From Schmidtea polychroa (lineage: Eukaryota), in the NCBI GenBank assembly GCA_044892525.1, contig CM097887.1, positions 8,308,001 through 8,372,000 of the forward strand: a stretch of 64,000 nt of DNA, written 5' to 3'. The position numbers and the translations under genes were made by a program. The notes beneath the pieces were generated by a model. The model was not told where the DNA came from. It ran no database searches and saw only the letters and a list, made by a program, of their open reading frames with translations. Within the stretch, counting starts at the first letter, position 1. Each line of letters opens with the position of its first letter. Below, in pieces: positions 10,163 to 29,934 of the stretch.

Positions 10163-10214
10163 AATACCTGGATGGGCAAAAGATCGATTAGATTTCGAAA
10201 TATTAGGAGGATTA

Positions 10215-13200
10215 TTGACGATGATCGAGAACTATGCAAATAGAGAAAGGACACACCCATTATTGCGAGTAGTCAAAAGCCAATGGCCAATATTATTTAC
10301 AATAACAGATCAATACGGAGACACACCATTACACAAACTCATGAAAGTAGGTAACAACGAGCAAATACTAGAAACAATAGAAGCATTTCACGACTGCAAG
10401 CGATCAACAGAACAAACAAACAACCAAGGTTACACACCATTAATGATAGCCGCAAACAGAGGCAAAACCAAAGACATTATAACCGCATTACTCGATACCG
10501 GATCGAAAATAACTACACAAGACCACGAGCGGAAAAACGCTCTACATCATGCCATCGAAGGGAGAAGTACCGAGGCGTTCACGTCATTGATGGAACTACT
10601 ATCATATGAGGACAATCGGGAAGTCGGAAACATGTATGATGGATTGTTAACAGCGATCAAAGAAAAACTGACGACAATTACCGGAATATTAATTACATGG
10701 AGAAGTCCAATTCAAAACGATTATATGATCAACGTAAACGAAGCGTTCACGAGAGGAGAGAACACGCTGATGAGAGAAGCTATGAAAGGACATCATTTAT
10801 TCGAAATCCCGAATCAATTACTAGAACGAGGGATAAAATTCACAAATCACAAAGACGAACAGTTAACAAAAAAGCGAATCGACACATTCGAAAAATCACT
10901 ATTCCAATTTACTAACCAAGTACGAAATAAATATTGGGAAACGGTAAGTGTGTTATATATGATGGACACAATGAATAACATCCGCGAGAATTACCTGGAT
11001 ATTATCCAAATACTTACAGCAGAGGAACGAATCAATAATCCAAACGGAAAGAAAACGAAAATAAGGTATGAGAAATCCAGGGAATCAAAGTCAACAACGA
11101 ACCAAACGGTCATAAACAACGTCATCGAAACCAAATCAATGAGTATAGATCAGGAGGCAATAATACGCAAAGCGAAAGAGGTATTCTTTGAGGAAATGCT
11201 AGAGTTGTCAGACGAAATAATATTGTCAAAAATAATAAAAGCTGTACATACATACGCAAGAGATCAAACCACGGGTTTAGATATCGGGAAAATCAAAACC
11301 TTCTTGCCTCGAGCATTTACGATGGTAACGAAGGATTCCAGAACACCCCTACAACAAGCAATACTAGCAGCGAAAGAAAATAGAGCAATAACGATCGTGA
11401 GAATCCTTGGAGATATGGGCGAGGAAACCAACACGAAAAATGAACAAGGCGAAACCGCCATGATGTATGCAGCTATAACAAAAATACACCCAAAAACACT
11501 CCACATCCTACATCAATCAGGATCGAAACTAGACGAAAGGTCCAATGAAGGAAATTCCACCTTGGACTGGGCAACCATACAGCCAAACCTAGAAATGATC
11601 AGATTTATTTGCAAAAATGCGACAAAAGAAGAAGTTGAAAATATGTGCAAAAACACATCTCAGTTTCAATGGAATACGGTACGGAAAAATCTAGAAGCAA
11701 TGAAATTATTATTAACCTGGAGAGTACCACAAAATAATAAATATGCGATAAATGTAAACGAATTCTACGAAAACGGAGAAAATGCGATGGTAAAGAATAC
11801 CCTAACGAAGGGGGGGACGCCTAAAATCATTTTAGTAGTATTAAATAGAGAAGACCTAAAATTCACGCAAAATCAGAACGAGCAACAACGAATTGGGAAA
11901 CATCGTCGTATGCAATTGAGAGAGTTAGTCAAAGAATGGAATAGAAAGAGGCATGCTGCAACGGGCAGGAAGGAGTTTGAATTCGAAGCAAAATTAGCAA
12001 GAAACAGAGTGCTAACAGCATATCGCAGATTATTGAACGATATAAATGTCGAGGACGACATTTTAAACGACAGCGGGGGAGATAAACACGATGACAATAA
12101 CGGAAAAGGCCGAAAGGAGGATAAAGAGAAAAGAGAACCGGAGGAGGGTAAACCGGAAAACAAGGATTCGGATACGAAAAGAGAGGGAAACAGCCCGGGA
12201 ACTAAGACCAAAGAGGAGGAAAAATCGAATAATGGAAAACAGAGGGTATGCCTACCTTTCACTAACAAAGAAATAGAGACAAATATGATATTAATGATAA
12301 TTATGCTTACCATGATAGAGTTAGTAACAGCTCATGGAGGGACGAGGACGATAAAAGAAACCAAAGAAGCGGAGAATCAAGATAGCAAAGAGGACGAACT
12401 AAAACAAGAAAAGAAAAAGCAAGCACAAGAGCAGCAGTGGGATTTAAAGGAAGAATGGGACTTAAAGGAAAGGTGCATACTAGGAAGATGCATGTCTAGA
12501 GCGTATCAGAAACTAGTACTGATAAATGAGGACACAGAACCAATAACAGAAGTAAGAATACAAGAAGCATACCGAAACCGAGACGGGAAAAGAATAACGA
12601 ACGTTAAAGGAAAAGAGGTACACCTAGGAAAAGGTGGCGAAGTAGTAATAACGCAGCTCCAACCAAGAAAAGAGCACAAAGTCTGTATTTCAAGATTAGG
12701 ACCGGGTGAGAGATGCCATCAATATGTGACGCAGCAGCAGCCTCCGAAGGAATATACGGTTTGTATCTGGAGAAACGAATCAAAAAGAGAATGCCGACGA
12801 TACCCGGGGAAAAGAGGAAAGAAAAGGAAAAACCACGACGAAAAGGACGAAGGAGGAAAGCACAAGAAAACTGGTGAGGAAGCTCAGGACAACTATGTTT
12901 CGGAGGAAGAGATGGAAAAAATACAAAAGATGGCAAAGGAGGGTATGAACGAGGAAATAGCAAGAATACGGGAAATGATGAAAGGAAATGGCAAAAGAGG
13001 AAACGAGAAAAGTACAGAAGCGATATCAACATTAACAAACAAGGAAAAACCAGAGAGTATAAGCGTGAAGCAGATGATGTGGATCAGTGGGATAATAATA
13101 ACAGGGGCATTCCTAATCATAACGGGGGGAACAATAAAAATAATTAAGGATAAACGACATCGCGGAGAACTAGAGATGACTCGAATCAGAAATTTCCAAC

Positions 13201-13286
13201 ATCGAGTGAAACGACCAAGTGATATCAAACAAGAACAGTGGGTGGAGGCCTGGAACGCTCAGCGCCCTCCAAACTCACGTATATAG
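10215..13286 (+). CDS. Ankyrin-repeat protein (two ~340-aa-spaced ANK modules) fused to an internal signal peptide, FN3-like ectodomain and TM; first ATG 10221, frame open from 10149
   Basis: ANK motifs GDTPLH, GYTPLMIAA, KNALHHAI, RTPLQQAI, GETAMMYAA, GNSTLDWA; duplicated TWRxP..Y.INVNE motif (10695, 11715); hydrophobic segments 12285-12332 and ~13074-13145. Confidence 0.85.
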   Translation: MTMIENYANRERTHPLLRVVKSQWPILFTITDQYGDTPLHKLMKVGNNEQILETIEAFHDCKRSTEQTNNQGYTPLMIAANRGKTKDIITALLDTGSKITTQDHERKNALHHAIEGRSTEAFTSLMELLSYEDNREVGNMYDGLLTAIKEKLTTITGILITWRSPIQNDYMINVNEAFTRGENTLMREAMKGHHLFEIPNQLLERGIKFTNHKDEQLTKKRIDTFEKSLFQFTNQVRNKYWETVSVLYMMDTMNNIRENYLDIIQILTAEERINNPNGKKTKIRYEKSRESKSTTNQTVINNVIETKSMSIDQEAIIRKAKEVFFEEMLELSDEIILSKIIKAVHTYARDQTTGLDIGKIKTFLPRAFTMVTKDSRTPLQQAILAAKENRAITIVRILGDMGEETNTKNEQGETAMMYAAITKIHPKTLHILHQSGSKLDERSNEGNSTLDWATIQPNLEMIRFICKNATKEEVENMCKNTSQFQWNTVRKNLEAMKLLLTWRVPQNNKYAINVNEFYENGENAMVKNTLTKGGTPKIILVVLNREDLKFTQNQNEQQRIGKHRRMQLRELVKEWNRKRHAATGRKEFEFEAKLARNRVLTAYRRLLNDINVEDDILNDSGGDKHDDNNGKGRKEDKEKREPEEGKPENKDSDTKREGNSPGTKTKEEEKSNNGKQRVCLPFTNKEIETNMILMIIMLTMIELVTAHGGTRTIKETKEAENQDSKEDELKQEKKKQAQEQQWDLKEEWDLKERCILGRCMSRAYQKLVLINEDTEPITEVRIQEAYRNRDGKRITNVKGKEVHLGKGGEVVITQLQPRKEHKVCISRLGPGERCHQYVTQQQPPKEYTVCIWRNESKRECRRYPGKRGKKRKNHDEKDEGGKHKKTGEEAQDNYVSEEEMEKIQKMAKEGMNEEIARIREMMKGNGKRGNEKSTEAISTLTNKEKPESISVKQMMWISGIIITGAFLIITGGTIKIIKDKRHRGELEMTRIRNFQHRVKRPSDIKQEQWVEAWNAQRPPNSRI

Positions 13287-13446
13287 AAAGGAATATGACT
13301 GTATATAATTGTAAAAAGTAAGTATATCTTATGTATATAACAGTACTATATCTTTATATAAGCGCGGTATCAATATTATACGATAACGGGAATCATAAAA
13401 TAAAATTAAATTTACATAAGAGTTGAAAAGTGTATATAAATTAGGA

Positions 13447-13806
13447 ATGGATCAAGGAAATAACGAAATGAACCACAATACAGTAACTGAAGAATTATGG
13501 AAGCAACAATGTGCCGTATTAGCACAATTAGTGTCCAATTTGCAAGAACAAGGACTGACGATGCACAGAAACCTGATCGAGAGTATGAACAGAGGATTTA
13601 GTTATTTGAAGATAATTGAAGACCAGAGGTTAAAAATCGAACAAATGCAAAGAGAGATAGAGAGGATAACCCAATATAGCCGTCGACAGGAAATTGAAAT
13701 AGACCGAATGAGGGAGGAAGCAGAACAGATAGAAATAGAAGACTGGTCGGAATGGCTAATGAATAGAGAGGAGAGCGGACACGAAGCCGACTCTTCCGAA
13801 CCCTAA
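13447..13806 (+). CDS. Small coiled-coil protein of unknown function (accessory ORF)
   Basis: Intact ORF with heptad-like segments; ATG at 13447 preceded by TTAG|GA; same composition as the element. Confidence 0.6.
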   Translation: MDQGNNEMNHNTVTEELWKQQCAVLAQLVSNLQEQGLTMHRNLIESMNRGFSYLKIIEDQRLKIEQMQREIERITQYSRRQEIEIDRMREEAEQIEIEDWSEWLMNREESGHEADSSEP

Positions 13807-13891
13807 ACCAAACCTAGCTTAAAATGTAAATAAGTGTAAATAAAATATCGAACCTGTATCGATAAGAACTACTTGTACATATAATTATAGA

Positions 13892-15280
13892 ATGGATAAA
13901 CGACAAAGAGAAGAGTTCAGAGAGATTGTCGAGCAAGTCCGAAAATCTACAACGATCAGAATACACAAACATGTTATGTGCGGAATATGTGAAAAGTTGT
14001 TAAAGGAACCTCACCAAACGCAATGTGGATGCCGAGCATGTAAAGAATGTATCAGTGAAGCAATAAAGAATAGACCACAGAGGTGCCCGGTGTGCAAAGA
14101 GACACTAATATCGAGTTTAGAAGACACTAACGAGGATAAAGCCGCAGTGAAAGACATGTTAAACACCAACCTGGGATGCAAAAATGCCCCATGCGAATGG
14201 AAAGGAGTAATATGGAAGGTAGTACAACATATGGGAGAATGTATGTACAGAATTGGCCAGTGTGAAAGGTGCCATAAAACCATTCGAGCAAGCGAAGGAA
14301 AAGAGCATCAAAGGCAGTGTGAAGAGAGATTAGAAAGATGTGAACACTGTGGAGAAATAGATACGTGGATAAATCTCACCCTCAAACATCACAATGTCCC
14401 AGAGGAGAGAGTATGTGCAGAGTTCAGTGGGGAATGCCCAAACGGATGTAACCAAGGGGAAATAATGAAGGTGGCACAGCATCTAAGAGAATGCGAAAAG
14501 AAAAGAATGACATGCGTACTAGGTAGATGGGGTTGTCAGAAATTACTACACCGAGGTGAGTTACCACATCATTTAGTAGAAAATGCTTCAACTCACGCAG
14601 AAATGTGGTCGACTGCGTTACGAGAAAGCGAAGAGAAAGTAAAACAAATGGAGATAGAGATAACATCGTTGAAAGTGTTAGTCAAAGAACTACTAGAAGA
14701 AAGGGAAGCGTTCGAAGAAGCCCGAGCAAACATAAAGATGCAAATAAACCGAATAGAAATCAGTAATAATCAGGCCAAGGAGCTACATCAGAAAATACGG
14801 GAAATAAATCTAAATGAGATAACCCCAACAGCACCCTACATATGGAAAATAACGGGAGTAAAAGAAAGAATACGAAAAGCAAAAACCGGAGAAGAGACAA
14901 GAATAACAAGTCCTGCATTCCATTCTTGGAAAAATGGGTACAAAATGAAAATGAAGATATATCCCAACGGGGACGGAACCGGATTAGATACGCACTTTTC
15001 GATTTTCTTTCTGTTATGTAAAGGAGAATACGACGAAATATTAGAATGGCCGTTCCAGGCAAAAATCGATATTACTCTGATGAACAACCAAAGTATACAT
15101 GAGCAAAGCTTCAAAACAACGGGGAATCAAATAGCTTACCAGAGGCCCCTCAACGAAGAAGGATCAGCAACAGGAGCACCTACGTTCATCTCACAACAAA
15201 GAGTAGAAGATATGGCGAGAAATGATACCATATATATCAAGATGACCGTGAGGAAAGAGGAGAAGGGTAGAACGGAGTAA
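13892..15280 (+). CDS. Intronless TRAF-like protein (RING, TRAF zinc fingers, coiled coil, MATH)
   Basis: RING CGICEKLLKEP.QT.CGCRAC..C...CPVC; zinc fingers C.N..C.WKG....VQH..EC; MATH YIWKI...SPAF..W.NGYKM.MKIYPNGDG.GL.THFS.FF.L.KGEYD.IL.WPF. Confidence 0.95.
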   Translation: MDKRQREEFREIVEQVRKSTTIRIHKHVMCGICEKLLKEPHQTQCGCRACKECISEAIKNRPQRCPVCKETLISSLEDTNEDKAAVKDMLNTNLGCKNAPCEWKGVIWKVVQHMGECMYRIGQCERCHKTIRASEGKEHQRQCEERLERCEHCGEIDTWINLTLKHHNVPEERVCAEFSGECPNGCNQGEIMKVAQHLRECEKKRMTCVLGRWGCQKLLHRGELPHHLVENASTHAEMWSTALRESEEKVKQMEIEITSLKVLVKELLEEREAFEEARANIKMQINRIEISNNQAKELHQKIREINLNEITPTAPYIWKITGVKERIRKAKTGEETRITSPAFHSWKNGYKMKMKIYPNGDGTGLDTHFSIFFLLCKGEYDEILEWPFQAKIDITLMNNQSIHEQSFKTTGNQIAYQRPLNEEGSATGAPTFISQQRVEDMARNDTIYIKMTVRKEEKGRTE

Positions 15281-15473
15281 CCAATCGAATAATGTTGTAT
15301 ATAATAATCTGTATATATCGGTGTATATAACCAATAAAATATTATATAATAATAGTATGAAAACCCTAAATACGAAAACCCAAAAATGATGCGAAAATTC
15401 CCCAAGAAACAGTAAATAATGAATAAATTCCTTTTTCATAATAAAAAGATTAATCGATGTCTATGATTTAGAG

Positions 15474-16529
15474 ATGACACAAGAGAAAATAACCGAAACT
15501 GCGATAGCCCCAACCAATGTCAACAAGACACAAATTCCCCGAGAACATAACAAAAAATGGAACAAAGTAATGTTCCAACTAACTAATCTCACCCGAAACC
15601 ACATCGAAGAAACTAGAGAAGATGAGAATAGTCAATACCAATGGTTAATACACAACTTAAGAGCGGAAGCAGAAGCATGCAAAAGAGCATCAAAATGGGC
15701 GTCACTAGAAAATACCCGCCAAGAAGCACACAGCCACTACTTAAAGCAGCTAGTGCAGGAAGCGAGAAAGAGACTTACCGATGAGAACACCAAGCGCGAA
15801 GCGGAAAAACAAATAGAAGACAGGAAAATGATGCACTTAGTGGCAGAAGCGAGAAAATGGAAAAGACAAAACAGAGAAATGAAAAAAGAGATGAAAGAAT
15901 TGCCCATGAGACTCGGATATGAGAGCGAACAGGGCAAATGGGAGGAGAATTTAATAATAAAGGAAGAATTGAAAAGGTTGAGAAAGGTCGCCGCCCGAAG
16001 CCAAACCTGGCAAACAAAGGCTATGGAGTTTGAGCGACATTTGGCAATGAAGTGCGACATAAGAGAGCACGAGAATGCCGCAATGGAAGAGATGATAACC
16101 CAACAAGCGGGACGGGTTGTGGAATTAGTAAATCAGGTAGAAGAGATGAAAAGAGACCTTAATGGATTACAAGGATCGCTGGAACAAAGAAACATGGTCC
16201 TAGCGGGAAAAAACAAAAAATTAGAAAACGAAAGGAAAATGTACACCGAAAATATTAAAAACTTAGAAATAGAAATTGAAAAATGGAAGGGCGACGAGAA
16301 AGTCAAGGCCCTAGACAAACAGATAGAGGCGAAAGATGAAGAGACAAGGTATCTCACCTATCTGCTCGACGAGGAATTGAATATCACTCGAGCTCTAAGA
16401 GACGAAATTAATGAATTGAGAGCTCAAATCCCCCAATATTACCTACCATACGACCCTATTGCGATACAGTTACATTCCGCGGTCGATAGTGATGAAGGTT
16501 ATGTAGGCCAGGAGGAAACCTTCGTATGA
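15474..16529 (+). CDS. Long coiled-coil protein of unknown function (accessory ORF)
   Basis: 351-aa intact ORF, E/K/R-rich heptads. Confidence 0.7.
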   Translation: MTQEKITETAIAPTNVNKTQIPREHNKKWNKVMFQLTNLTRNHIEETREDENSQYQWLIHNLRAEAEACKRASKWASLENTRQEAHSHYLKQLVQEARKRLTDENTKREAEKQIEDRKMMHLVAEARKWKRQNREMKKEMKELPMRLGYESEQGKWEENLIIKEELKRLRKVAARSQTWQTKAMEFERHLAMKCDIREHENAAMEEMITQQAGRVVELVNQVEEMKRDLNGLQGSLEQRNMVLAGKNKKLENERKMYTENIKNLEIEIEKWKGDEKVKALDKQIEAKDEETRYLTYLLDEELNITRALRDEINELRAQIPQYYLPYDPIAIQLHSAVDSDEGYVGQEETFV

Positions 16530-16699
16530 GGGTGGATGAAAAGATGAAAAACTAAAAACCGGGACGTATATCCCAAACAAAAAAAATTAAAGTACAGTAA
16601 AAGTATTTGAGGGACTGTAACCCTGTGTAAATAAAAACGATATAAATGTATAAGTATAAGTCGCACTGTAGCGCATGATTAATTGTAAATATTATAGAT

Positions 16700-17398
16700 A
16701 TGAAAATCGAGGAAATGATAGAAATTATGAGCGACGTAGAAGAGGGAGAGATTGAGGCAGAAACAACAGAAACACAAACGCTAAAGGCCGAGTTACGGGA
16801 AGAGAAATACGAAAACGGGAGATTAATAAACAAATACCTGGAGGACCGGAAAATGATAAAGGTGTTAAAGAAAGAGTGCGAAGCGTTGGGGGAAATAAAA
16901 AGAGAAACGGAAGAGGAAAATGAATGGCTACACGAACAAAGGAAGCGAGGGAAAAACTGGGAAAAGATAGCGGGAGAACTATGGAAAGAGAGGGCAAGCT
17001 TCAAAGCAAAGGAGGTAATCCAAGACTACTGGAAAACTGAGGCGAAGGAGCGCCAAACAGCTATAAATAAATTAAAACGACAACTAGAAGAAAACCAACG
17101 GGAAAGTAAAGAAATGAGGAAGTGGGTCCGCAAATATAGAGAAATAGAAAGAAAACATCAACAACAAAATTACCTGCAAGAAAACGAACAAGATCTCCTA
17201 CAAATCGAGCTAAAAAGAAACCTTGAAAAGAAAAGGGAAGAAATTAGACGCTTGGAAAAAGAAATTAGACATCTAAAGAGAGAAGCCCGTGAAAAAGACC
17301 GACAATTGGAAATGCTGCCCGAGTTAAGACACAGGGTAATTAAAGCAGAGTCCACCTTGATGAGAATCGGCGAAAATAATCCAAATCAGAACCATTAA
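16700..17398 (+). CDS. Coiled-coil protein of unknown function (accessory ORF)
   Basis: 232-aa intact ORF, E/K/R-rich heptads. Confidence 0.7.
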   Translation: MKIEEMIEIMSDVEEGEIEAETTETQTLKAELREEKYENGRLINKYLEDRKMIKVLKKECEALGEIKRETEEENEWLHEQRKRGKNWEKIAGELWKERASFKAKEVIQDYWKTEAKERQTAINKLKRQLEENQRESKEMRKWVRKYREIERKHQQQNYLQENEQDLLQIELKRNLEKKREEIRRLEKEIRHLKREAREKDRQLEMLPELRHRVIKAESTLMRIGENNPNQNH

Positions 17399-17438
17399 AT
17401 TAAGGGTCATTAAAACCAATTGTAAATAAACATAATGA

Positions 17439-18107
17439 ATGTATAATAGTATCATGCGAGGCGAGATGATGATAACAATGATGGTATTGATGATTCTGAT
17501 GGAAAGCAAACAAATAGACGCCCAACCGAAAATCGTACGAGATTACCGAAATCAAAATCAAGAACCTAAACAAGAATCCAGTCAATGCACATACCCGATG
17601 ACCGTAAAAACCCATATCATCCAAACCATTCAATCAACCCGATCACACATCAACAACATCCAAACAATGTGTAAAAAGAATCCCATTTGTAAAATGATAA
17701 ACAAACAAATCCTCGAACAAATCCAACAATTCGACCAGTTGGAACAACAAATGCAACAAGAGAATTTTGGAAATCTGGTAGAAAAGCCAAAAATACCTCC
17801 CGAAATCAATGACACCCATTATCTCATATATGTGGTGATCGCAGAAACCCTCCTCCTATGTCTACCAATATTCATGAAAATTTACGAAGTTCGAAATAGA
17901 TGTAGAGTCTCGACATCAATAAGAGTAACCTCGAACCAAAATCCTCAAGAAGTGCCCCTGACAAATCTTAACCCATCCCCATTCCGACCTCGAACCCCGA
18001 GTAATCAACCAATCCAGCCGAAATCTAATAGTCAGACCTATCTCAACATCAATACCCAAACCAACCAACAGCCGCCAGCAGAAGCATCAATGGTTAACAG
18101 TTCATAA
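17439..18107 (+). CDS. Putative small type I membrane protein (accessory ORF)
   Basis: Signal-like MMITMMVLMILMES..IDA, Gln-rich ectodomain with 3 Cys, TM YLIYVVIAETLLLCLPIFM, Pro/Asn-rich tail; AATAAA follows at ~18214. Confidence 0.65.
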   Translation: MYNSIMRGEMMITMMVLMILMESKQIDAQPKIVRDYRNQNQEPKQESSQCTYPMTVKTHIIQTIQSTRSHINNIQTMCKKNPICKMINKQILEQIQQFDQLEQQMQQENFGNLVEKPKIPPEINDTHYLIYVVIAETLLLCLPIFMKIYEVRNRCRVSTSIRVTSNQNPQEVPLTNLNPSPFRPRTPSNQPIQPKSNSQTYLNINTQTNQQPPAEASMVNSS

Positions 18108-18669
18108 ACTCTAACTCAAACATTTGTGTTATTATATGTGGAAACTTTTATTGTATGTACAAACTATCACCTTAAGTGATACTTGCTTGATCTTGCTTTG
18201 ACCTTGATCTTACAATAAAAATTTTATCATTGTTGTATAATTTTCGTGTTCGTGTTATATTTTTTTTTGAATGAATGAATTAAGTTAATTATGCAATTGC
18301 GGGACGCAATTTTGATGGGTCCCCGAGTGATTTGTTGGGCTGAGTCGAAAATTTAATCGTTGAAAAATAAGAAAGTAGGGAAGTAGAACATTAAGAAAAA
18401 TAAAAATAAAATAAATAAAATCAGAAATAAAATAGAATAAGGTATAAGGAAAATAATAATTAAGACATAAGAATTAAAACAAAAAATAAAATTAAGAAAA
18501 GATTAAAATAGAACAAGTTGACAAATAAATAAAGAGGAATTCAAGAAATAATAAGGAAATTAAGGAAATAAATAGAAAAACATATTAAAAATAAAGAAAA
18601 TAAGGAGAAAACAACCTAAAAACAAGAAAATTATATTAAATTAATAGAAATAAGCGGTACTCAACTCTG

Positions 18670-18703
18670 ATTGGTCCGCACAAATAAGAATTTGATATAT
18701 ATA
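18670..18703 (+). promoter_or_regulatory. LTR core promoter: inverted CCAAT box (ATTGG 18670) and TATA (TATATATA 18696-18703)
   Basis: Both motifs are conserved in the solo LTR (25166, 25192); a conserved AG|GTAAGA donor lies ~50 nt after the TATA. Confidence 0.55.
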
Positions 18704-19220
18704 CAACTACCAAAAACATTAAATTTACTGTTAACCCCGAGCATTTCATAGGTAAGAAAAAATGTTTACTGTTTCTACTGTTAACCCCGAGCATTTCATA
18801 GACATCTACAACTCACGGAGACTTATTTCAAGGATCAGCAATACAAGTAGAGCAACAGTTAATTCGAAAAACTTCACAGCAATTCGAACTCAGTCACAGC
18901 AATCGACATTCGACGAATTATCATCAGACTAATTTGGAACGACTAACGTTAATTTTCCGATTCAGCCTAATTCCATAGTAAGGGATTTTTATTTATGATA
19001 TTGTTTTTCGAAGTTAATAGTAAATATGTATATTTAATGAGTAATTAAACTTTTAAATTTAACCAGACTCTCTTTTCATTTGATCCTGAATAACGATTTT
19101 GATAAAGTAAATAATTTAAATGTTTAAAAGTATTTATTGGTAACAGGTGAACTCTTACATAATTTTTATGGATATTTATTTTGAAGTGATAGTTTTATGA
19201 TTTCTAATATTAACGAGAAA

Positions 19221-19350
19221 CGTGGCGTTGAGATACTCCATGTCATGGTGTGAGGTGCCTTCGGGAGCTCAGCCGGTGGACATGGAGTATTTCAATCACG
19301 CAGCTAGATTGGGCCGAAATGTGAAGGCTTCTTCACGGGTCCAATTGCTG
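19221..19350 (+). ncRNA. Conserved structured RNA element (two adjacent hairpins) in the LTR
   Basis: 17-bp stem 19228-19244/19279-19295 with 5 compensatory pair changes versus the copy at 25740-25807; cUUCGg apical loop; second hairpin 19301-19350. The strand is assumed from LTR orientation and G-U pairs. Confidence 0.75.
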
Positions 19351-21209
19351 AAGGACTTAAAATCTGTCAGAGTACCGAAATATAGACCGAAAGGAAACCT
19401 TATGAAATTTTCGAAAATAGGATATGTGCTTCACAGCGACTGAGGGAGTTCTCCTATTAACTCTGTATTGTCCAGAGTCGTCTTATAAGACATTCATGCC
19501 ACTTCTGTCTATAAATCCGAACTTACCATGTGGGGGAAGATACCATTAAACATCCATCGCTGGTTTTTCTAACATATCGAGAAGTTGAAATTGCATTCGG
19601 TAGATTTTTGAAAAAGTAAATCTAATTTAGGTCATCTCTTTCAGATGCGACATCCAAATCTTAGCATATGATGAGGAATTTACAATAAAGGAAAAGTAAA
19701 ACATAAAACCACAATAATACTGTATTCAATCACATATATTAACAAAATCTGGTAATACCCATTGAATAATTTTCATGCTGTCGCGTCGAAATATCCACTA
19801 CTGAAATATGCTTCATAGAGTCTAGTTGGCTGGTTCGTAGAGATCTTCCATCGTTCAAAAGCATCCAATATTGAGGAAATTACGAGTCGTAGTAAATAAA
19901 TCCAACATCATAAGCTCAGATGGGAATCGACACGCGATGTAACATTTGCAGTTCGCTCAGTACGGTTGATAGTTACAGATAAAATTTCCATCGAATAGGC
20001 ACCCATACATACAGACATACTGCTAACATAACTATGAGTAGCGTCATCCGGTCAGAAATATGCATGAGAAACAGCAGAATCATTCCGAATGCCTCTCACC
20101 GCAGGGAATGCCGCCATGTGTCACCCTCTCTAAGATTCTTAGTGTGTGAGTAGTAATCAGTGGTCCTATTAGATAATGCTGACATGAGATGTGACTTCCA
20201 GATGACTGACTCTTAAATTTCACTACTGATAAAGGTCATTCGTACCACTAAAAAGATAAGCCAAAATAACCAGTAACCGACTACTAAGATAAGAGACTCT
20301 CTAAAGTGCACTCATTAAAGATAATTTTGCTTAAATTAAATATTCTAAATAAAAATCGAAATTGTTGAAGGGGTATTTTAATTAATAACCGAAAATTCAA
20401 ACCAAACTTTATAACTAAACCATAGGAAGTTTCACCTAAGTGTTGTAGAGGTTTATCGTAATTCTGATTAGATGTTACAAATAATAGTAGTAGCCTTTGA
20501 GCCAAATTTAAATTAACTAAAGCATCCACAGGAATTTTTGGGTTATAAAATAGCTAGTAATATTGTACTTAAATTTCTCATATTCCATGTAAACTACGTA
20601 TCGCAATAGAAAACTAAATCCGATAACAAATTATTATGTAATTACAATGTTTTTTTACGATGCCATATTTCTACGACGATATCACCGTATGGTATGGATA
20701 AGGGGTGATCATAAAATAGTGACGTATAGTTTATACGAAATTACGAGTTGTTACTTATTCCGCTACTCGAGGTAAGGGTGCAAGTTTTTACTAGTCGCAT
20801 TTGGTCCAAAAACCTTATTTTGCATTAGAATAACAACAAATAATCAGCGAAATTTAAACGAAGTGTAGTATAGTGTATTTGTAATGAAATAGGTTTATTC
20901 ACTCCGGCATGAACAAATCCGTAAATTGCCTTTATGTGCGATAGATAGAAATCCAACTCGAACGCGATAGACGAAAATTAAAATTTTTACAAATAATTTG
21001 CATTCGTCAGGGAAGCAATCAGGGCGTTGAGGAATAATTTTTGTAAAGGATACGTAAAATATTAGTAATCAAGGGTGAAGGGAAGGATCCTGTTTCATCG
21101 ACTCGTCTTGTTTTCTTCCAGCACTAAGTATCCAATAGCGAATAAACCGTATATCTGATCCGAAATTTTTAGATATAGTCACCATAGTTTTCTTCTTTAG
21201 CCATCCATT

Positions 21210-21962
21210 ATGTTATCAAACAACAAATCAGCTTTACGTCCCTGCTTCTCCTGCTCAGATAAAAATGCAGTGATTAAAGATCTTCAAGCCCAGATCGGTC
21301 GATATAAACGAAAAATCGACGAGCTGGAAGGGACATGGTTTAGTCCCGCTCGGATGAAGGAGATCCAAAAGAAGCTCGATCGTAGCGAGCATTGCCGGGA
21401 CGCGCTAATATCTGAGAGCCGTGCCCAAAGAAGTCTAATCAGAGAACAATCCGAGGCACTGCATAAGGTTTACGTGCAGGCGGCTACAACCCGAAAGATC
21501 GTGCAGATTCCCATCCGAGAGGCCGATGACATCTTTCCGCCTCATCACAACCTTTCCTCGAATCCATCTCCACCGTTCAAGAGACCGTGCCGAGACTGCG
21601 TCGAAACCGAATGGTCCCCCAAGCGTCCAGATGTTGTCATCACGGGTACCAGTAAGCCCCCCACTGCTAGTCCATCTGTATCAGTCACCCTTCTACAAGT
21701 GGCATCTTCAAACAAACCCAAGCGCAAACAACTCTCTCGAGCAGAGCGCAAGAAGAGACAGCGCGAGCGCGCCACTGCAAAGCCAAACATCCCATCAACA
21801 GAGGACTCAACCAACGGTGGTAACTCTCACGTGTCCATCGACCTAACAACGGGACCCTCAGCGCGAATCATATCAGCCGCTGGCGTAAGGTGGGAAGAGA
21901 ACGCTTCCGAGTTTTTCAACCTCGACGAATTATTCGCCGACACTGAATGGGAGAAACAATAA
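21210..21962 (+). CDS. LTR-encoded 250-aa protein (CxxC, coiled coil, Arg/Lys-rich motif, acidic C-terminus)
   Basis: Intact in both LTR copies, ~84% aa identity by manual count with many synonymous changes; polypyrimidine splice acceptor TTTTCTTCTTTAG just upstream; AATAAA at 22086. Confidence 0.85.
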   Translation: MLSNNKSALRPCFSCSDKNAVIKDLQAQIGRYKRKIDELEGTWFSPARMKEIQKKLDRSEHCRDALISESRAQRSLIREQSEALHKVYVQAATTRKIVQIPIREADDIFPPHHNLSSNPSPPFKRPCRDCVETEWSPKRPDVVITGTSKPPTASPSVSVTLLQVASSNKPKRKQLSRAERKKRQRERATAKPNIPSTEDSTNGGNSHVSIDLTTGPSARIISAAGVRWEENASEFFNLDELFADTEWEKQ

Positions 21963-22085
21963 AACCCCAGTGGCGGTCAGGATGAGGAACAAGGATCCGA
22001 TCTATGTTGATTATGATGTTTTCTCTTCTTTCGACAAACATTAGTAAAGTGTACAGCTGAATCCTGGTGTCATAACGTTGAAATT

Positions 22086-22091
22086 AATAAA
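22086..22091 (+). terminator. Polyadenylation signal of the LTR transcription unit
   Basis: AATAAA followed by a TTGTTGTCTT GU-rich element, conserved in the solo LTR (~28351). Confidence 0.6.
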
Positions 22092-22226
22092 TCTTGTTGT
22101 CTTACACGTTTTCGTTCATGAATAATTAGACTTTAATTAAGTGGGTTGAGTAGAGAACCCGCAAGATCTAGTGAGAATTTCCCAATTTGCATTCAGCGAA
22201 TTCCTGATAGGTGGTTGTGTAAGGAA

Positions 22227-22410
22227 ATGGACGTAAGCCCTTCTATCGGCAGTCGTGAATGGGAAGTCGAGGCCTCAGCAAGGAGTAGTTTTAAGGCAGA
22301 AGCTCACCTGCTTGCTGGCGTCTCGCCTGCATAGTGCAGTACCAACGTGAAGTGATTCACGGGCACTATGTTGGAAGAAAGTTATGTGGGGTTTCACTCC
22401 AGGTTGACAA
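22227..22410 (+). ncRNA. Near-invariant structured block near the LTR 3' end (U5-like region)
   Basis: 184 nt with 2 differences versus 28491-28674; helices CATAGTGC/GCACTATG, CGTGAA/TTCACG capped by GNRA (GTGA vs GTAA), CAGCAAG/CTTGCTG. Confidence 0.5.
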
Positions 22411-22812
22411 ATCGGTGGCACCTTTTATTCGAGATGGACAATCAACCCTTAGACCCGCCAACATGGTAGAATGGTCAGCCGAGGTGTGACCCCAACATCA
22501 ACAACAATAACGAATTCCAAACAATATAACTTTATTGAATAACGATTGTAATGACACAAATTACTCAATGCAACTCAAACGTATTCGGGTGCTTATTAAA
22601 ACCCTTTGGAAGGAACTTTGGGAACACTTTAATTATACGACCACTCAAGATGACATTGAAAAATTACAAACAAACGAGAGTTTACATTACGTAACTAAAT
22701 GTAAAACGATTGTAGAAACTATTGTAAATAAATTCGGTCAAAATACACATGTCAATTTTAAGAATGATTTTAAAATACCATTTTTTAATGTTATGGATTA
22801 GATGTTTTTATT

Positions 22813-23140
22813 TGAGAATCTAGTATTGGCATAAAAAAACTTCGCATTAGCTCATTTCAAAGGCACCTGTAAATATAAAGCATTTGCAGATGCTTAATCG
22901 GAAAACATTTGATATCGAAAAATGTGACGACATTGTGATTGATGACTTATATTTTAATAAGTAACGCATTGAAGAATTTTTATCTCTTATCGATTGTGGC
23001 TTTGAAAATGCCATAAACATTAAGTATAGTGTTGCTATCATTCCAAAGGGATTGCCAAGGTTATTTTGCATCAATGAAATTGATTTATTTTTGCCAGAGA
23101 ACGCATCTCAGAGTATTATGGATGCTTACAGAAGGAGAAG
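22813..23140 (+). pseudogene. Degenerate SF3 helicase resembling the C-terminal half of a CRESS-DNA virus Rep
   Basis: With frameshifts: (G>stop)ESSIG(K) Walker A 22813-22840, IVIDD Walker B 22932-22946, KY...IPKGLPRLFCIN motif C ~23061-23075, DAYRRR Arg finger 23121-23138; in-frame TAA at 22962. Confidence 0.65.
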
Positions 23141-24687
23141 AAAAGGCAATCTTTTTAAAACTTACAAATCTGACCAAATATTATTATTATTATTCAGACT
23201 ATGAACTACCCGTATTTTCCAATAAAATTTGTTTGAGTTATCCTTTAATTTTTCAAAATACTTTTAATTGGTAAGAAACAAAATATATAGCTCAAGCAAA
23301 TTACTCAATGAGAAAAATTACAGCAAAATTAGGATAAGCTAACTTAAACTGGTATTTATAATTAAATACAAAAGAATATTACCATGACTTAGTAATTTTA
23401 TCTAATACTTAAATGTTATTATATAAAAAATAAATTAAAATTTTACAATAAGAATGTTTAATATTTATAATTCATTATATGACATAAAATGAAATTGTAA
23501 AATAAACTTACCCATTTTGCAATTAAATAAATTCATTTATATGTTTCACATATTACTCAATACTGAGGAAAAAATATAAAGAATACTTGCTTTTAATTAC
23601 ACGAAAAATGATTTATTGTGCAATTTAATTATTTCCAAAAAAGTCATTTTTACATAATTTACAATAGTTAAACAAAGGCAAAAGAAATTATTTATTTGAA
23701 GGATTTTAAGAAATCACATTTTTCCAAATTCCTAATATTTTCAACAGTTATTTGATTTTAATTGTTCAAATGTTCAATATTTAGCAGGTTTTATAAAAAT
23801 TATCTTCAATAATATTAATTCATTCATTTTATATTAATGTAATGGTTGTGTTATTTAAATGTTACAAAGTTTCTTATAAATATGGCATTAACTTTTCCCT
23901 AATCGCCATAAAGATTATTTTACCTTTCAGCATCCGTGTACCATGGTGCTTCTATTGATTATATCTTCAACTGGAATTCCCAGACATTTGAAAAATTTTC
24001 CACGATATTTCATGAAATGCATATCTTTATGAGTTTTTGTGAAATTCATTAAATTCTTAGATTTGAGTTCACTAAATTAAACTTGTCCATTGAGACTCAA
24101 ACCAATTAGTCAACTGCTTCTCACTTTTTTTCAGTGAATTCCAATTGATAATTTCTCCGTTCAACGAGTCAATGATTTAATCACTAAAAATGTTTTATAT
24201 CAGACTTCTTCGATTTTATCTTCACTAAAGTTTCTGCTATATTTATAAAGTTTATAAATATAATAGTTAATTTTTTAAATGATATAACAGTAAAAATTGC
24301 GTAACGATTAGAATAATTTACGAATTTTTTATAAATATTTATTTAATATTCTGTAACAACAACAATAGTCACTGGCCGTCAAAACCACTCAATTACAAGG
24401 TACGTTTATTGATTTTTCTATTGCTTAGATACGAGAATGGCTATTCTTCAAATGGTCTCGCAATAAGCTCTGTATGATTAATTGGTTTAGAGTTAATTGG
24501 TTGAAATCGCAACTTGTACGATCTATTGTGAATATTAATAAAGCTTCTCTTGTTCGGGATTGTTAATTTGTGAATTAATAAACACGCTTTGGAGTGAGAG
24601 TAAAAAAATTGAATTTACAAATATTTTCACCTATCCAATAACTCAACACACAGTAAATATTGGAAGCAGCTAACCAAGTCGAGAGGG

Positions 24688-24824: not shown

Positions 24825-25732
24825 TGTTGGGCTGAGTCGAAAATTTAATCGTTGTAAAAATAAGAAAGTAGGAAAGTAGAACATTAAGGAAAATAAAAAT
24901 AAAATAAAGGAAATCAGAGATAAAATAGAATAAGATATAAGGAAAATAATAATTAAGACATAAGAATTAAAACAAAAAATAAAATTAAGAAAAGATTAAA
25001 ATAGAACAACAAGTTGACAAATAAATAAGGAGGAATTCAAGAAATAATAAGGAAATTAAGGAAATAAATAGAAAAACATATTAAAAATAAAGAAAATAAG
25101 GAGAAAACAACCTAAAAACAAGAAAATTATATTAAATTAATAGAAATAAGCGGTACTCAACTCTGATTGGTCCGCACAAATAAGAATTTGCTATATATAC
25201 AACCACCAAAATCATTAAATTTACTGTTAACCCCGAGCATTTTATAGGTAAGAGAGAATGTTTAAAGTTAACTGTTAACCCCGAGCATTTTATAGTAAAG
25301 ACATCCACAACTTACGGAGACACATTCAAGAATCAGAGACACTAACCGAGCAACAGTTCATTCAGAGAATTCCTAGCTACTTACAATCAATTCGAAGCTA
25401 AGAGATTTGTCACAGCAATCGATATTCCATCAACAAACTCAGTCAGAGCGACTAACATTAATTTTTCGATCCAGCCTAATTCGACAGTAAGGGATTTTAT
25501 TTCATTTATTTATTTAATTTCGAAGTTAACCGTACTATGTATCTTTAATGAATAATTAAAAATTTTTGAAAAATAACATTGACTCTCTTTTCATTTGATC
25601 CCAATAAATGATTTCGATAAAGTAAATAATTTAAAAGTCTAAAAGTAGTTATTAGTAATAAATGAGCGATTGCACAATCTTTATGATTACTGTTATGAAA
25701 TACCTTTTTATGATTTTTAAAGTAACGAGTAA

Positions 25733-25862
25733 CGTGGAGTTGAGGAACCGCAGATCATGGTGTGAGGTGCCTTCGGGAGCTCAGTCGGTGGATCTGAGGT
25801 TCTTCAATCACGCAGCTAGATTGGGCCGAAATGTGAAGGCTTCTTCACGGGTCCAATCGCTG
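25733..25862 (+). ncRNA. Second copy of the covarying double-hairpin RNA element
   Basis: Stem TTGAGGAACCGCAGATC/GATCTGAGGTTCTTCAA; apical part and second hairpin nearly identical to 19221-19350. Confidence 0.75.
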
Positions 25863-27473
25863 AAGGATTGACGCAAAATTAGACAAAATGAGAAAAACGA
25901 TTTAGATTAGTGACATGAATTTAGAACGAATACCGAAATGTACAGTGATTGAGGTGGACGTTACATCTGCAGTGAGTTTATTTCCATCCTGAGGAACCAT
26001 GCGATCCTGAGACTAACTCTTCGCTAGCATCGTCGTAATCAGTCCAATTTGACTCTAACATCGTACTAAATTCCACACTTATGTTCGGTTAATTAAAAAT
26101 TAGGACGAATTCTATATTTCTTCATTTTTCAGTTAAAAATAAATAAAGCTCTAATGTATAAATAACATTTATTAAAATTAAAGTAAAAACATAACTCCTG
26201 GTAATCATTTTATTTAACTTATACTTACTAGTAAACTAGAAATACCCGTTCAGCAGTTTCCACACCATCACATCAGGATGTCTATCATCGAAATAATATC
26301 CACCTAGAGTAGGGAGTTGAATTGTAGAACTTTTTCATCAAGTAATATCTAGAATTGAGGAAAATCTCCAAACATAGTAAATAATTCCAAAAAATCCAAG
26401 CGAGAGAATTGTCATGAAAATTGAACGGTTGAGAATTTGTCCATATGATGTGCGAGTGCAGATAAATTTTCCATTGAGTAGGCACACTAGCATGACTATG
26501 GGTAGCAACACCAGCGTTAGAATTACCTGAGAAATACACACGAGGATAGATGATAATCACGCAGCGAGTGCATGGCTAATCATAGTAATCCGTGTTCCAT
26601 ATGTCGTATCTAGCATAGATTCTAGCATTACGACTGATAACGGCGGGATATTGATTAACCGTCATAGTAGCTCCATGAATAGCAGATGATGGCTCTCATA
26701 GATTTTGTGTTGAAATGCGATTAACGAAAGATAACTACGTGCAGTAACATTTCACAAACCACTCATCTGGAAAATTTTCGAATGAATTAAATTTAACTGA
26801 TAATAGAATGACTAAATGGATAATTATAGACAATTATAATTTGAATTAAATAATTTAAAGGATAACCGAATGACCAAGTGCGTAATGGTAGACCAGTATG
26901 AGTTAAACTAAATAATTTAAACGGTAACGGGCATTGTTAAATTAAGTGGGGATAATTGGGACCTGCTAACTAATGATGGAAAACTAAAGCCAAGCATTAA
27001 TGATAGAGTCGGAAATTGTCAATTCGAGTGTTACGAGTGATCTAACGAACAACTAATAGTAATTTTGAATAATAGGTAAATTAATTCGAGTTCGTGAATA
27101 ATAACATTTTGAATAACCATGGTAAATATTTTAAATGATAATTAAGAGTGTTTTAAAAGCTACTCAAATGTACCATTTAACAATCAGATATGTTTATAGA
27201 CCAACAATCATAGGGCAATTTAGTAATTAATAAACCTTCTCAATTTCTAAGTTAAAGATCTATTTGCATTCGTCAATGCTATCCCTTTAATGAACTCTTC
27301 GTTAAATAAAAGCGATGTTACAAAATCGTCTAGAAGGGAAATACATTCCCCTACTTGTTCCGAATACCCGCTAACTGCTGACAGTGACTAACCAACCTCA
27401 TTCGACCTGCGATCTTATTCATATAAAAGATTTACTAAGTCGTTATAGTTCCTTATTTTACAGTTGATCAATT

Positions 27474-28223
27474 ATGCTGCCAACTACGAAATCCACCTTA
27501 CGTCCTTGCTTCTCTTGCGCGGACAAAAACGCGATTATAAAGGATCTTCAGGCCCAGATCGGGCGCTACAAAAAGAAGATAGATGAGCTGGAGGGCACTT
27601 GGTTTACCCCCGCTCAGATGAAGGAGACTCAAAAGAAGCTCCATCGTAGTGAGCATTGTCGGGACGCGCTCATCTCTGAAAGCCGTGCCCAGAGAAGCCT
27701 TATTAAAGAACAGTCAGAAGCGCTGCACAAAGTCTACGTGCAGGCAGCTACCACACAAAAAATCGTACAGATTCCCATCAAAGAGGCCGATAACATCTTC
27801 CCGCCTCATCATAACCCCTCATCAAATCCATCTCCACCGTTCAAGAGACCATGTCGAGACTGCGTGGAAACCGAACTGTCACCTATGCGACCGGACGTTG
27901 TCATCACAGGTACTAGTAAGACCTCAACTACTAGTACCTCTGTATCCGCTGCGCTTCAGCAAGTCGCATCTACGAGCAAACCCAAGCGCAAACAATTATC
28001 TCGTGCGGAACGTAAGAAGAGACAGCGTGAGCGCGCATCCACAAAGCCAAACATCCCATCGATAGAAAACTCAACCAGTGGTAGTAGTTCGCGCGTGTCC
28101 ATCGACTTGACAGTAGGACCCCCAGCGCGCATCATCTCAGCAGCTGGCGTGACATGGGAGGAGAACGCCTCCGAATTCTTTAATCTGGATGAGTTACTCG
28201 CCGACACCGAATGGGGAAAGTAA
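27474..28223 (+). CDS. LTR-encoded 249-aa protein, second copy
   Basis: Colinear with 21210-21962 without internal indels; acceptor TTATTTTACAG ends at 27463. Confidence 0.85.
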   Translation: MLPTTKSTLRPCFSCADKNAIIKDLQAQIGRYKKKIDELEGTWFTPAQMKETQKKLHRSEHCRDALISESRAQRSLIKEQSEALHKVYVQAATTQKIVQIPIKEADNIFPPHHNPSSNPSPPFKRPCRDCVETELSPMRPDVVITGTSKTSTTSTSVSAALQQVASTSKPKRKQLSRAERKKRQRERASTKPNIPSIENSTSGSSSRVSIDLTVGPPARIISAAGVTWEENASEFFNLDELLADTEWGK

Positions 28224-28490
28224 GAGAACCACAACGGCATTCCCGAAGCCTGTTGCGAAGTCGAACTACATTTGTTGGGGAGTTTTTCTTTTCCTTCGAC
28301 AAACGTTCGTGATGTGTACAGTTGAATCCTTGTGTCTAAATGTTGAAATTAATAAATTTTGTTGTCTTATATATTTTCGTTTATGAATAGCCAGACTTTG
28401 ATTAAATAGGTTAAATAAAGCGTCTTCGAGACCTAAGGAATAATCCCCGATTTGCTTTCGCGAAATTCTGACTAACGGTGGTGTAATGAG

Positions 28491-28674
28491 ATGGACGTAA
28501 GCCCTTCTATCGGCAGTCGTGAATGGGAAGTCGAGGCCTCAGCAAGGAGTAGTTTTAAGGCAGAAGCTCACCTGCTTGCTGGCGTCTCGCCTGCATAGTG
28601 CAGTACCAACGTGAAGTAATTCACGGGCACTATGTTGGAGGAAAGTTATGTGGGGTTTCACTCCAGGTTGACAA
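28491..28674 (+). ncRNA. Second copy of the near-invariant U5-like structured block
   Basis: 182/184 identical to 22227-22410. Confidence 0.5.
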
Positions 28675-29934
28675 GGCGGTAGCACATTTTATTCGAGATG
28701 GACAATCAACCCTTAGACCAGCCAATATTGTAGAGTAGTCAGCCGAGGTGTAACCCCAACACCAAAATCACGATCTTAGAACATGCACAGAAACTCATCA
28801 AAATTGTTACAGAGATCCACACGGATGCAAGAGTCAGGTGAATACCAATCTATACGGAGATCCAGCTATTTCTGGCAATTGCATCGATAATATCAAAAAT
28901 TCTAGGTATTGGCTCAAATAACAAAAAGCCTTGCAAACCAAGGTCAGGAAATTTTAGCGAAAGAGATTTCAAGAATTGAATATGAGTCGGAGATCTCAGT
29001 AGAAAAAATGAGAAATCTTTTTTTTCAATGTGCTTTATTTTATTGATTGCATTCATTTGTAAAGTGGCTATTTAATATTATCCTTATTGTTTGACTTTAG
29101 TTTTTCGAAAATTTATTTCAGTTGCATTCAAGTTAATAGTAAATAAATGTAAAATCAAACAAAATGTCAAATCAGTTTTTCATAATATTGGAACCATTTT
29201 AAACCTAAAAGAACATGAGTTGATTATAAATTATTAGCGACTCTATAAAATTTATATCTGTGTAATATAAATGACTCTGACATAATATATTAGTGTAATC
29301 GCGAGTGATTCGAATGAAAGCATTTATCATAAAATCTCGTATTTCTAGAAATCTATAAAACTTGTATTTCGTGAAAGTTTTTAATATAGAAGTCCCAGGT
29401 AGATAGCACCAATTAAGTGATAAAGTAAAATAAATCGCAGAACCAAAGACGCTTGCGACGGGCGTTTAATGACTGATTATGATTATTATGTGTGGTTGCT
29501 ATTCGAACGTGAAATTAATGAAAGTGTTGATCAGATAAGCAATTAGAAGTGAAAGATTCTCCACACATGTAACCACCACATGTAACCTTTTCTTACTTCC
29601 TGTCTTAATTACTTTGATTCAATTGATGTATTATCGTGAATTTGATTTGGCCCATTTACACAATGTTAAAATCCCCTGTGTTTCAACATAACATTATACT
29701 AAATTATTTTTAGTTTTCTAATTGTACAAATCTATTCAATTTCATAAATCGTGATCTTAAGTATTTTTTAACTTATATTTAAAAAAATAAAATCTCTAAA
29801 AAATTAACTTATTTCTATTATTTCACTATTTTTAAAAAAAAAATTTAAAATTCAATTTGTTTTAAGAATAATTAAGAATTTGTTTTAATAATAATTTTAA
29901 TAATTTCTTTAGATTTAAATTTTTACAAAGAGTT

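Follow-up and report, generated by a model that had tools for sequence, protein, structure and literature searches.

The long terminal repeats (LTRs) of a giant, Burro-like Gypsy element contain a protein-coding gene of their own, and it is under purifying selection. We found it in a window of 64,000 nucleotides from Schmidtea polychroa (the window is the whole stretch of DNA that we analysed; Table 1). Giant elements of this class were already known. The LTR gene is real and family-wide, and it encodes a member of an unnamed protein family. As to its role, our leading but tentative reading is a regulator in the manner of Rev or CERV, which may let the element's unspliced RNA escape splicing and leave the nucleus.

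Table 1. Features of the window and of the protein encoded in the LTR (nucleotide positions, except where residues, aa, are given)
Feature	Position	Strand	Details
Internal region	50..18107	+	polyprotein, then ankyrin, RING-TRAF, and three ORFs without assignment
3' LTR	18333..22497	+	4,165 bp; TGTTGGG...CCCAACA (TG..CA ends); TSD TCAA
Predicted promoter	18669..18703	+	reversed CCAAT box (GATTGG) and TATATATA; putative function
Predicted splice donor	18749..18756	+	TAG/GTAAG; putative intron start 18752
RNA element 1	19221..19355	+	two long hairpins inside the predicted intron
Hypervariable LTR middle	19356..21187	+	unalignable between subfamilies; predicted intron or enhancer region
Predicted splice acceptor	21188..21200	+	pyrimidine tract and TAG, 9 nt before ATG
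LTR ORF	21210..21962	+	250 aa, 250-codon frame
Basic motif	21714..21770	+	KPKRKQLSRAERKKRQRER; predicted helix 177-189; predicted NLS and/or nucleic-acid binding
Predicted poly(A) site	22086..22115	+	AATAAA, CA at 22105-22106, U-rich downstream
RNA element 2	22230..22380	+	short helix round GUAAG donor-like site; G-G mismatch/CAC-bulge stem; AGUACCAA-loop stem
Solo LTR, another subfamily	24825..28761	+	3,937 bp; TSD CCAA
Intact ORF copy in solo LTR	27474..28223	+	249 aa, 84% identical to the ORF at 21210..21962
Protein layout (AlphaFold2 and sequence)	aa 12-130		CxxC 12-15; helix 13-40; GTWFSP kink 41-46; helix 46-99; FPxHH 109-113; CxxC/H 127-130
Protein layout, remainder	aa 169-246		basic motif 169-187; acidic hydrophobic tail 234-246

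A sequence-only reading had noticed that the window holds two copies of the ORF and that the differences between them look like those of a protein under selection. Its counts were correct: the copies differ at 40 of 249 residues and contain no internal indels, and exactly 12 synonymous codon changes and 1 non-synonymous one fall in codons 22-44. Across the whole frame, there are 82 synonymous and 40 non-synonymous codon changes, 103 of the 150 base changes are in third positions, and the pairwise dN/dS is 0.07 (NG86). The remaining two forward frames have dN/dS of 1.9 and 2.1 and contain 6-16 stops. In antisense, the frame with which third positions are shared has a dN/dS of 0.13, yet it contains 5-8 stops. 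For a formal estimate with more copies, we took 60 loci from two genome searches, which gave 41 unique coding sequences, and dropped 2 with premature stops. (Because the 60 loci are the best-scoring matches, their intactness is not a fair sample.) For the 39 remaining copies, a GY codon model gave a dN/dS of 0.184 (2dlnL = 441 against dN/dS = 1). By region, dN/dS is 0.08 in the N-terminal domain, 0.12 in the basic motif, 0.14 in the tail, and 0.30 and 0.47 in the linkers. Synonymous sites are saturated between families. In 19 presumed 5'/3' LTR pairs, we counted 8.5 synonymous and 14.5 non-synonymous differences (pN/pS of 0.54), which are too few to decide about decay after insertion. Overall, the LTR frame is a selected protein-coding sequence.

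The ORF does lie in an LTR, as had been proposed. The matching 5' LTR is upstream of the window (G000:C3:8300097-8304261) and has 0 differences from the 3' LTR, so both LTRs of the 30.4-kb element carry the same ORF; the element is very young. The second copy in the window does not lie in the partner LTR; it sits in a solo LTR of another subfamily. The two LTRs are 81% identical across the ORF and the 3' end, and their middles cannot be aligned. Intact frames persist within solo LTRs. The LTR end is followed by a 7-nt spacer and then a primer-binding site (PBS; L031:5263-5290), which resembles a tRNA-Pro PBS. The TG..CA ends, target site duplications, and PBS exclude a Penelope pseudo-LTR, DIRS, or a tandem duplication. 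Beside the 3' LTR (22500-23200) are broken frames, including two fragments without a Pfam match, which resemble a superfamily-3 helicase of small circular DNA viruses. A host-like C1/RhoGAP frame follows the solo LTR (30482-31465).

The polyprotein is a single ORF with the order Gag-CCHC, mononegavirus-type fusion glycoprotein, PR, RT, RH, and IN (PF24664, at aa 1663-2002, precedes RVP, RVT_1, and rve). The RING ORF and the N-terminus of Gag are upstream of the window. Burro and GYPSM1 are giant Gypsy-like elements of planarians, about 30 kb long, that carry domains of host pathways as cargo (PMC6431247). Our element, judged by its sequence, matches Burro as that source describes it: it is of similar size with long LTRs, a fusion-glycoprotein env lies in frame between gag (with CCHC) and PR-RT-RH-IN, and the cargo includes TRAF/MATH, ankyrin, and RING domains (PMC6431247). 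The layout differs from that of Burro-1, which has MATH within ORF1, as does a sister family in this genome, while TRAF is in a downstream ORF in our element. The published Burro text, in the part available (PMC6431247), names no ORF inside the LTR. More broadly, we found no description of an ORF inside Burro LTRs in the texts that we searched, though earlier annotation, for instance in a figure or supplement, is possible.

To see how widespread the gene is, we used the PBS as an anchor. Our PBS pattern has 670 matches in the genome (a looser 15-nt pattern has 2,709). Among the first 30 consecutive PBS-anchored loci, 14 have the ORF at the same position in the LTR, ending about 540-570 nt before the PBS. 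The other loci are 14 copies of family D, which lacks the ORF, 1 locus with a deleted copy, and 1 with a broken copy downstream. Identity to the window's protein is 80-96% in family A, 64-67% in family B, and about 32-37% over the full length in family C; there are also many older, decayed copies. The families that we counted are few and related, so counts such as these are not independent events.

A distant homologue is found at the same place in LTRs of the Burro-1 type: among matches of the looser pattern, 14 of the first 20 loci that were not already listed have it (profile E from 1e-10 to 7e-8). One of these elements, which we scanned downstream, has MATH inside ORF1, which is the Burro-1 layout. 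These LTRs (G000:C1 loci L200-L212 and L217-L219) are 4.3-5.2 kb long and contain two selected frames (e.g. L204:2109-2471 and L204:1429-1896, both on the minus strand). The coiled-coil homologue has a dN/dS of 0.12 and lacks an initiating AUG; it begins at a conserved YAG/TG, which points to splicing. We looked for the upstream coding exon that such a frame needs and did not find one. The neighbouring frame, a 121-aa ORF with an AT-hook-like PRKRGRPRK end, has a dN/dS of 0.18; its AT-hook-like match, at E = 0.056, is below the cut-off.

Family D (L092-L097, L156-L175) has the same PBS and 3' junction as the ORF-bearing families. Its LTRs are about 1.55 kb and its interior is 10.7-13.6 kb, and one pair of LTRs is 99.8% identical. 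Most copies have a gag-like ORF of up to 877 aa, and pol of this family is missing. These are young, non-autonomous, gag-only satellites. We also noticed a second ORF-less lineage, with LTR ends of the Burro-1 type (L205, L211, L213, and L216); L205, the sole copy that we aligned, keeps the 3' RNA element.

Outside this genome, 16 database proteins (P0001-P0016) match, and most are chimeric gene models. In the one chimeric model that we tested, the host exons are 81-94% identical to this genome and the LTR part is about 40% identical, so these proteins come from a related species. In most of them the homologue is fused to host gene models, and several enter it just before the same methionine. 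This is the pattern that would be expected if a solo LTR with a strong acceptor lies inside a host intron; as these predictions illustrate, host gene models can take in the splice acceptor of the LTR.

The ORF is accompanied by predicted signals for its own expression. We scored the layout in 40 5' LTR ends (20 hand-picked to cover the families and the next 20 in genome order), of which 21 bear the ORF. A GATTGG..TATA promoter motif (by regular expression) is found in 16 of these 21 and in none of the 19 ORF-less ends. The pattern missed three copies of family B, and the two that we aligned have AATTGG. In 14 of the 16 LTRs, there is a predicted splice donor within 50 nt of the promoter match. 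AATAAA or a variant lies 370-470 nt before the PBS in 21/21 ORF-bearing ends and in 0/19 ORF-less ends. Thus, promoter, splice, and poly(A) motifs co-occur with the ORF. The family-A promoter pattern was not found in LTRs of the Burro-1 type.

For the acceptor, a strict test upstream of the ATG was passed by 15 of 25 sequence classes, compared to 31 of 675 background positions (4.6%). The window copy's class fails solely because of an upstream AG; this class and three other intact ones that miss still have a pyrimidine tract and YAG, and the other six are old copies. Upstream of the ATG, the classes cannot be aligned with each other. A 50-nt tandem duplication surrounds the predicted donor in the window (18725-18802), so that AG/GTAAG is followed by a second copy; similar, independent duplications around the donor are present in families B and C. 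A gapped-motif search for an intron-less genomic copy gave 0 matches. The 18752-21201 joint was not among the matches listed in contigs of runs X1, X5, X6, and X7, whose RNA status is guessed or unknown and which, as contigs, cannot show absence. From the sequence, it is likely that the ORF is expressed as a short spliced mRNA. All of these parts (promoter, intron, ORF, and poly(A) signal) are predicted to lie inside a single LTR, so they would survive in solo LTRs.

What is common to the protein families is a coiled coil, a kink of the [GS]TW[FY]xP type (TW-x-x-P), a second helix, a proline motif near residue 110, and the basic motif. AlphaFold2 is confident at helices 13-40 and 46-99, moderately so at 177-189, and not elsewhere (mean pLDDT of 60). 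The coiled coil described by the sequence-only reading is kept, and both the AlphaFold2 helices and the dimer prediction agree with it. In that prediction, two chains of residues 1-135 pair in parallel and in register as a homodimer, and C12 and C15 sit at its interface; the parallel coiled coil would span residues 12-87, with both CxxC motifs at the interface. The dimer score is 0.58 (0.00 for the best control), runs agree in at least 61% of contacts, and the pLDDT is at least 66. Of 30 solved pairs from microbes, 21 reached our mark for a dimer, and none of 23 single chains did; the eukaryotic figures are 17/29 and 0/30. The score supports binding as a prediction.

Other motifs that had been called invariant are so between the two window copies only. 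In place of CRDC, family B has CHGC; family C and older copies have Cxx(H). We find CFSC only in families A-C and in older relatives, and the acidic Phi-x-x-Phi-Phi tail only in families A-C; the Burro-1-type homologues have neither. The tail takes the form LDEL[LF], LEDLL, or ID[AE]ML, with a net charge of -4 to -10 in 12 of 13 full-length members, and we take it to resemble an activation motif. The basic motif is conserved, as its low regional dN/dS indicates, and it varies in composition: it is KPKRKQLSRAERKKR in family A, RKRKRPTRAEKNQKRR in family C, and KPKRKRLGRNIREKLKK in the Burro-1 type. The description of this motif as Rev/Tat-like held in part. In the window, it is a mix of lysine and arginine (6 R and 5 K per 22 residues scored) and resembles a nuclear localisation signal, starting with KPKRK. 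In homologues from another species it is a run of arginines (RRPNRNRRRRERRR or HNPSKNRRRRERRR), and RRPNRNRRRRERRR is far more Rev-like. Arginine runs are more typical of RNA binders.

Kinship with Rev or Tat was not borne out. Neither sequence nor fold searches gave a significant match of the protein to Rev, Tat, Rex, or Tas. One of 12 proteins that we scanned, a homologue from another species, matched Pfam's REV below the threshold (E = 0.0013, 19.1 bits vs. a cut-off of 22), and a model of SIV Rev was only at rank 50 (E = 0.34). Pfam has no family for either window copy, and the alignment gave only sub-threshold matches; the protein family lacks a Pfam model. A word-indexed database search with a single sequence and a search with alignment A4 found nothing, no homologue was found in viral contigs, and no PDB sequence matched below E = 1. 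Foldseek returned generic helical matches, and no transcription-factor family or fold matched. The delta antigen was rejected (0.77 in the ESM Atlas, which is below the level of a lead, and without support from Pfam). We also searched 14 members with 8 classes of regular expressions for leucine-rich export signals; none matched at a position common to families A, B, and C, although such expressions miss atypical signals.

The LTR has two RNA elements. RNA structure in 19221-19350, which had been suggested from the sequence, is well supported: this RNA folds far better than shuffled sequences (z of -6.7), and 10 of 53 pairs have compensatory changes among 7 sequences. The evidence is more mixed for the structure suggested for the 3' end of the LTR. 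By folding energy, windows over 22225-22497 have z of only -2.0, -1.0, and +0.5, but covariation supports the region: 17 of the 36 pairs in RNA element 2 show compensatory changes and 95.5% of cells are paired, compared to 36-48% in slid controls. Its loop columns are invariant, and the G-G mismatch is kept in 17/17 and 16/17. LTRs of the Burro-1 type keep its stems and loops and lack GUAAG. The loops CCUUCUAUCGG and AGUACCAA (the latter with a single bulged G opposite) are near-invariant in families A-E and in LTRs of the Burro-1 type. At a place similar to that of RNA element 1, the long hairpin of family C is a different one. Neither element matched Rfam (with E up to 1 in the window and up to 0.5 in four loci), and we rejected identification of these RNAs as a ribozyme, CTE, RRE, or RxRE for want of an Rfam match. 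Of the 19 ORF-less LTR ends, 11 contain the motif of RNA element 1 and 18 retain RNA element 2. That ORF-less elements keep these structures could be explained equally well by a role in packaging.

How might these parts work together? In the reading that we favor, transcription would begin at the CCAAT/TATA site, the RNA would be spliced from 18752 to 21201, and poly(A) would be added near 22106. The product would be a dimer, probably nuclear and imported through KPKRK, and its basic helix would bind RNA element 2 or 1. Its target would be the element's intron-containing RNA, which could then escape splicing and exit the nucleus, following the logic of Rev and Rex (PMC7776567, PMC12789967) and of CERV (PMC10309623). 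As RNA element 2 lies between the donor-like GUAAG and the PBS, only RNA that stays unspliced would carry it. The early mRNA, itself spliced, would in this way turn on the full-length RNA, and satellites that lack the ORF would make use of the borrowed protein in trans. Given the many downstream ORFs and the donor before the PBS, we infer that the element must both splice its RNA and export it unspliced.

In favor of export, we count the selection on the protein, the shared position in the LTR, the enrichment of acceptors, the co-occurrence of promoter and poly(A) signals, the predicted dimer, the arginine runs in another species, and the precedent of CERV in an invertebrate LTR element (PMC10309623). 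We also count the G-G mismatch of RNA element 2, because Rev attaches to the RRE's stem IIB where non-canonical purine pairs widen the groove (PMC7776567). Several observations argue against export. No export-signal pattern is conserved, the window's basic motif is K/R-mixed and NLS-like, and the acidic tail resembles an activation motif. A role as packaging or priming signals could account for both RNA elements. LTRs of the Burro-1 type lack GUAAG, the search for intron-less copies came up empty, and no upstream coding exon was found. The AT-hook-like end of the neighbouring Burro-1-type frame points to DNA instead. Since neither significant homology nor a conserved export signal was found, the protein is not a member of the Rev/Rex family, though it may work like Rev or CERV.

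Nearly as likely is a regulator of transcription or chromatin that acts on the element's own LTR (like Tas of foamy viruses or Tax or HBZ of HTLV), or an anti-silencing factor. The predicted parallel dimer would offer a pair of basic helices to DNA or to nascent RNA, and the acidic tail, whose three forms are under selection (dN/dS of 0.14), would recruit co-activators. We consider this a serious contender because an export signal is not conserved, the tail is activator-like, packaging could explain the RNA elements, and the Burro-1-type LTRs have a second selected frame with an AT-hook-like end. Yet those same LTRs encode homologues without the tail, the basic motif in families A-C is about 70 residues past the coil, unlike in bZIP proteins, and no transcription-factor family or fold was matched. 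The arginine runs of the other species are also more typical of RNA binders. In a precedent for the proposed circuit, Tas of foamy viruses is expressed from a second promoter and goes on to drive the LTR (PMC12789967).

It is improbable that the protein is directed at the host, as a suppressor of piRNA/RNAi or of cell-death defence, with its site in the LTR giving early, high-copy expression (solo LTRs included). The element does bear several domains of host pathways (RING, TRAF, and ankyrin; PMC6431247), Burro RNA is under PIWI control (PMC8532177) and rises on knock-down of smedwi-2, and intact frames persist within solo LTRs. But every structured part is under strong purifying selection, arms-race divergence is not seen, and we found no host homologue or known suppressor fold. 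We give a low probability, too, to an accessory in the virion, in packaging, or before integration, in which a basic dimer would serve as chaperone of the 26-kb RNA or bring the complex into the nucleus. The basic motif, the predicted dimer, the very long genome, and the location of RNA element 2 just upstream of the PBS (a site that is typical of packaging signals) would all suit it, but Gag already has CCHC knuckles, and a separate promoter, intron, and poly(A) signal suggest an early regulator rather than a stoichiometric part. Finally, one could cite the fruitless contig and word-indexed searches in favor of a frame that chance has left open, or that is conserved for reasons other than coding. 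Such a frame is ruled out by the codon-level pattern (low dN/dS in the ORF frame only, with saturated synonymous sites between families) and by the homologues in another species, so we put almost no weight on it.

If export of unspliced RNA is the protein's role, it would address how a retroelement RNA of 26 kb, laden with introns, avoids splicing and retention in the nucleus. The sole tested precedent from an invertebrate in the literature that we searched is CERV. Our analysis offers one protein as a candidate, two RNAs that covary as its possible targets, and natural controls that lack the ORF, in an animal where these elements are already amenable to RNAi and in situ hybridisation. Because the gene lies wholly inside the LTR, it outlives the element in solo LTRs, and its action in trans may persist well beyond the loss of the internal genes. 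It is possible, though we lean against it, that Burro LTRs, intact solo LTRs included, are self-contained modules, with a promoter, an intron, a Rev-like switch gene, a poly(A) signal, and the RNA element that its product reads, and that young ORF-less satellites retain the RNA and parasitise the protein. If so, the planarian genome has been seeded with many stand-alone copies of a viral regulator, and the early/late circuit of complex retroviruses has evolved independently in a flatworm Gypsy lineage and been packed into the LTR.

Among known regulators, Tat has a cysteine-rich domain that binds cyclin T, followed by a basic motif. The LTR protein differs in having only CxxC pairs, which are absent from homologues of the Burro-1 type and from those of the other species. 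As for regulatory genes near LTRs, sag is located in the LTR. MMTV sag, Tas/Bet of foamy viruses, and HBZ of HTLV resemble our gene in their accessory or regulatory nature and in their place at the genome's LTR end. Tas has its own promoter (PMC12789967). Sag is a membrane superantigen, though, and the Tas promoter is in env, while the promoter of the LTR ORF is predicted within the LTR. LTR retrotransposons of plants (Grande with gene23, RIRE2, and Retand) have extra, family-wide ORFs of unknown function, some with nuclear products, which are proposed to act like accessory proteins of retroviruses (PMC7264820). Those ORFs are mostly between pol and the 3' LTR and often antisense, while ours is sense and inside the LTR.

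With HIV Rev, HTLV Rex, and MMTV Rem, the protein shares a small size, a predicted basic helix, predicted oligomerisation, a predicted spliced mRNA, and an RNA structure in the LTR region; of their response elements, RexRE is located in the 3' LTR, with which RmRE overlaps (PMC7776567, PMC12789967). It differs from them in the lack of a conserved leucine-rich export signal or significant homology, in a gene that is wholly inside both LTRs, and in a long coiled coil, predicted to be parallel, in place of their helical hairpin. Another likeness by features is with CERV, from Cer1 of C. elegans. CERV is made by splicing, its helix-hairpin carries a zipper, it contains a KRKK NLS along with a Cys loop, and it is needed for export of the genomic RNA (PMC10309623). 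In both cases, an LTR element of an invertebrate encodes an extra protein from a spliced mRNA (predicted here), with a helical zipper domain, a basic NLS, conserved cysteines, and a predicted multimer, and CERV likewise is reported to have no outside homologues (PMC10309623). CERV has 517 aa, a zipper that is shared with Gag, a candidate export signal, and a tested function; the protein described here has 250 aa, is encoded wholly in the LTR, and is likened to CERV by its features, with a predicted function.
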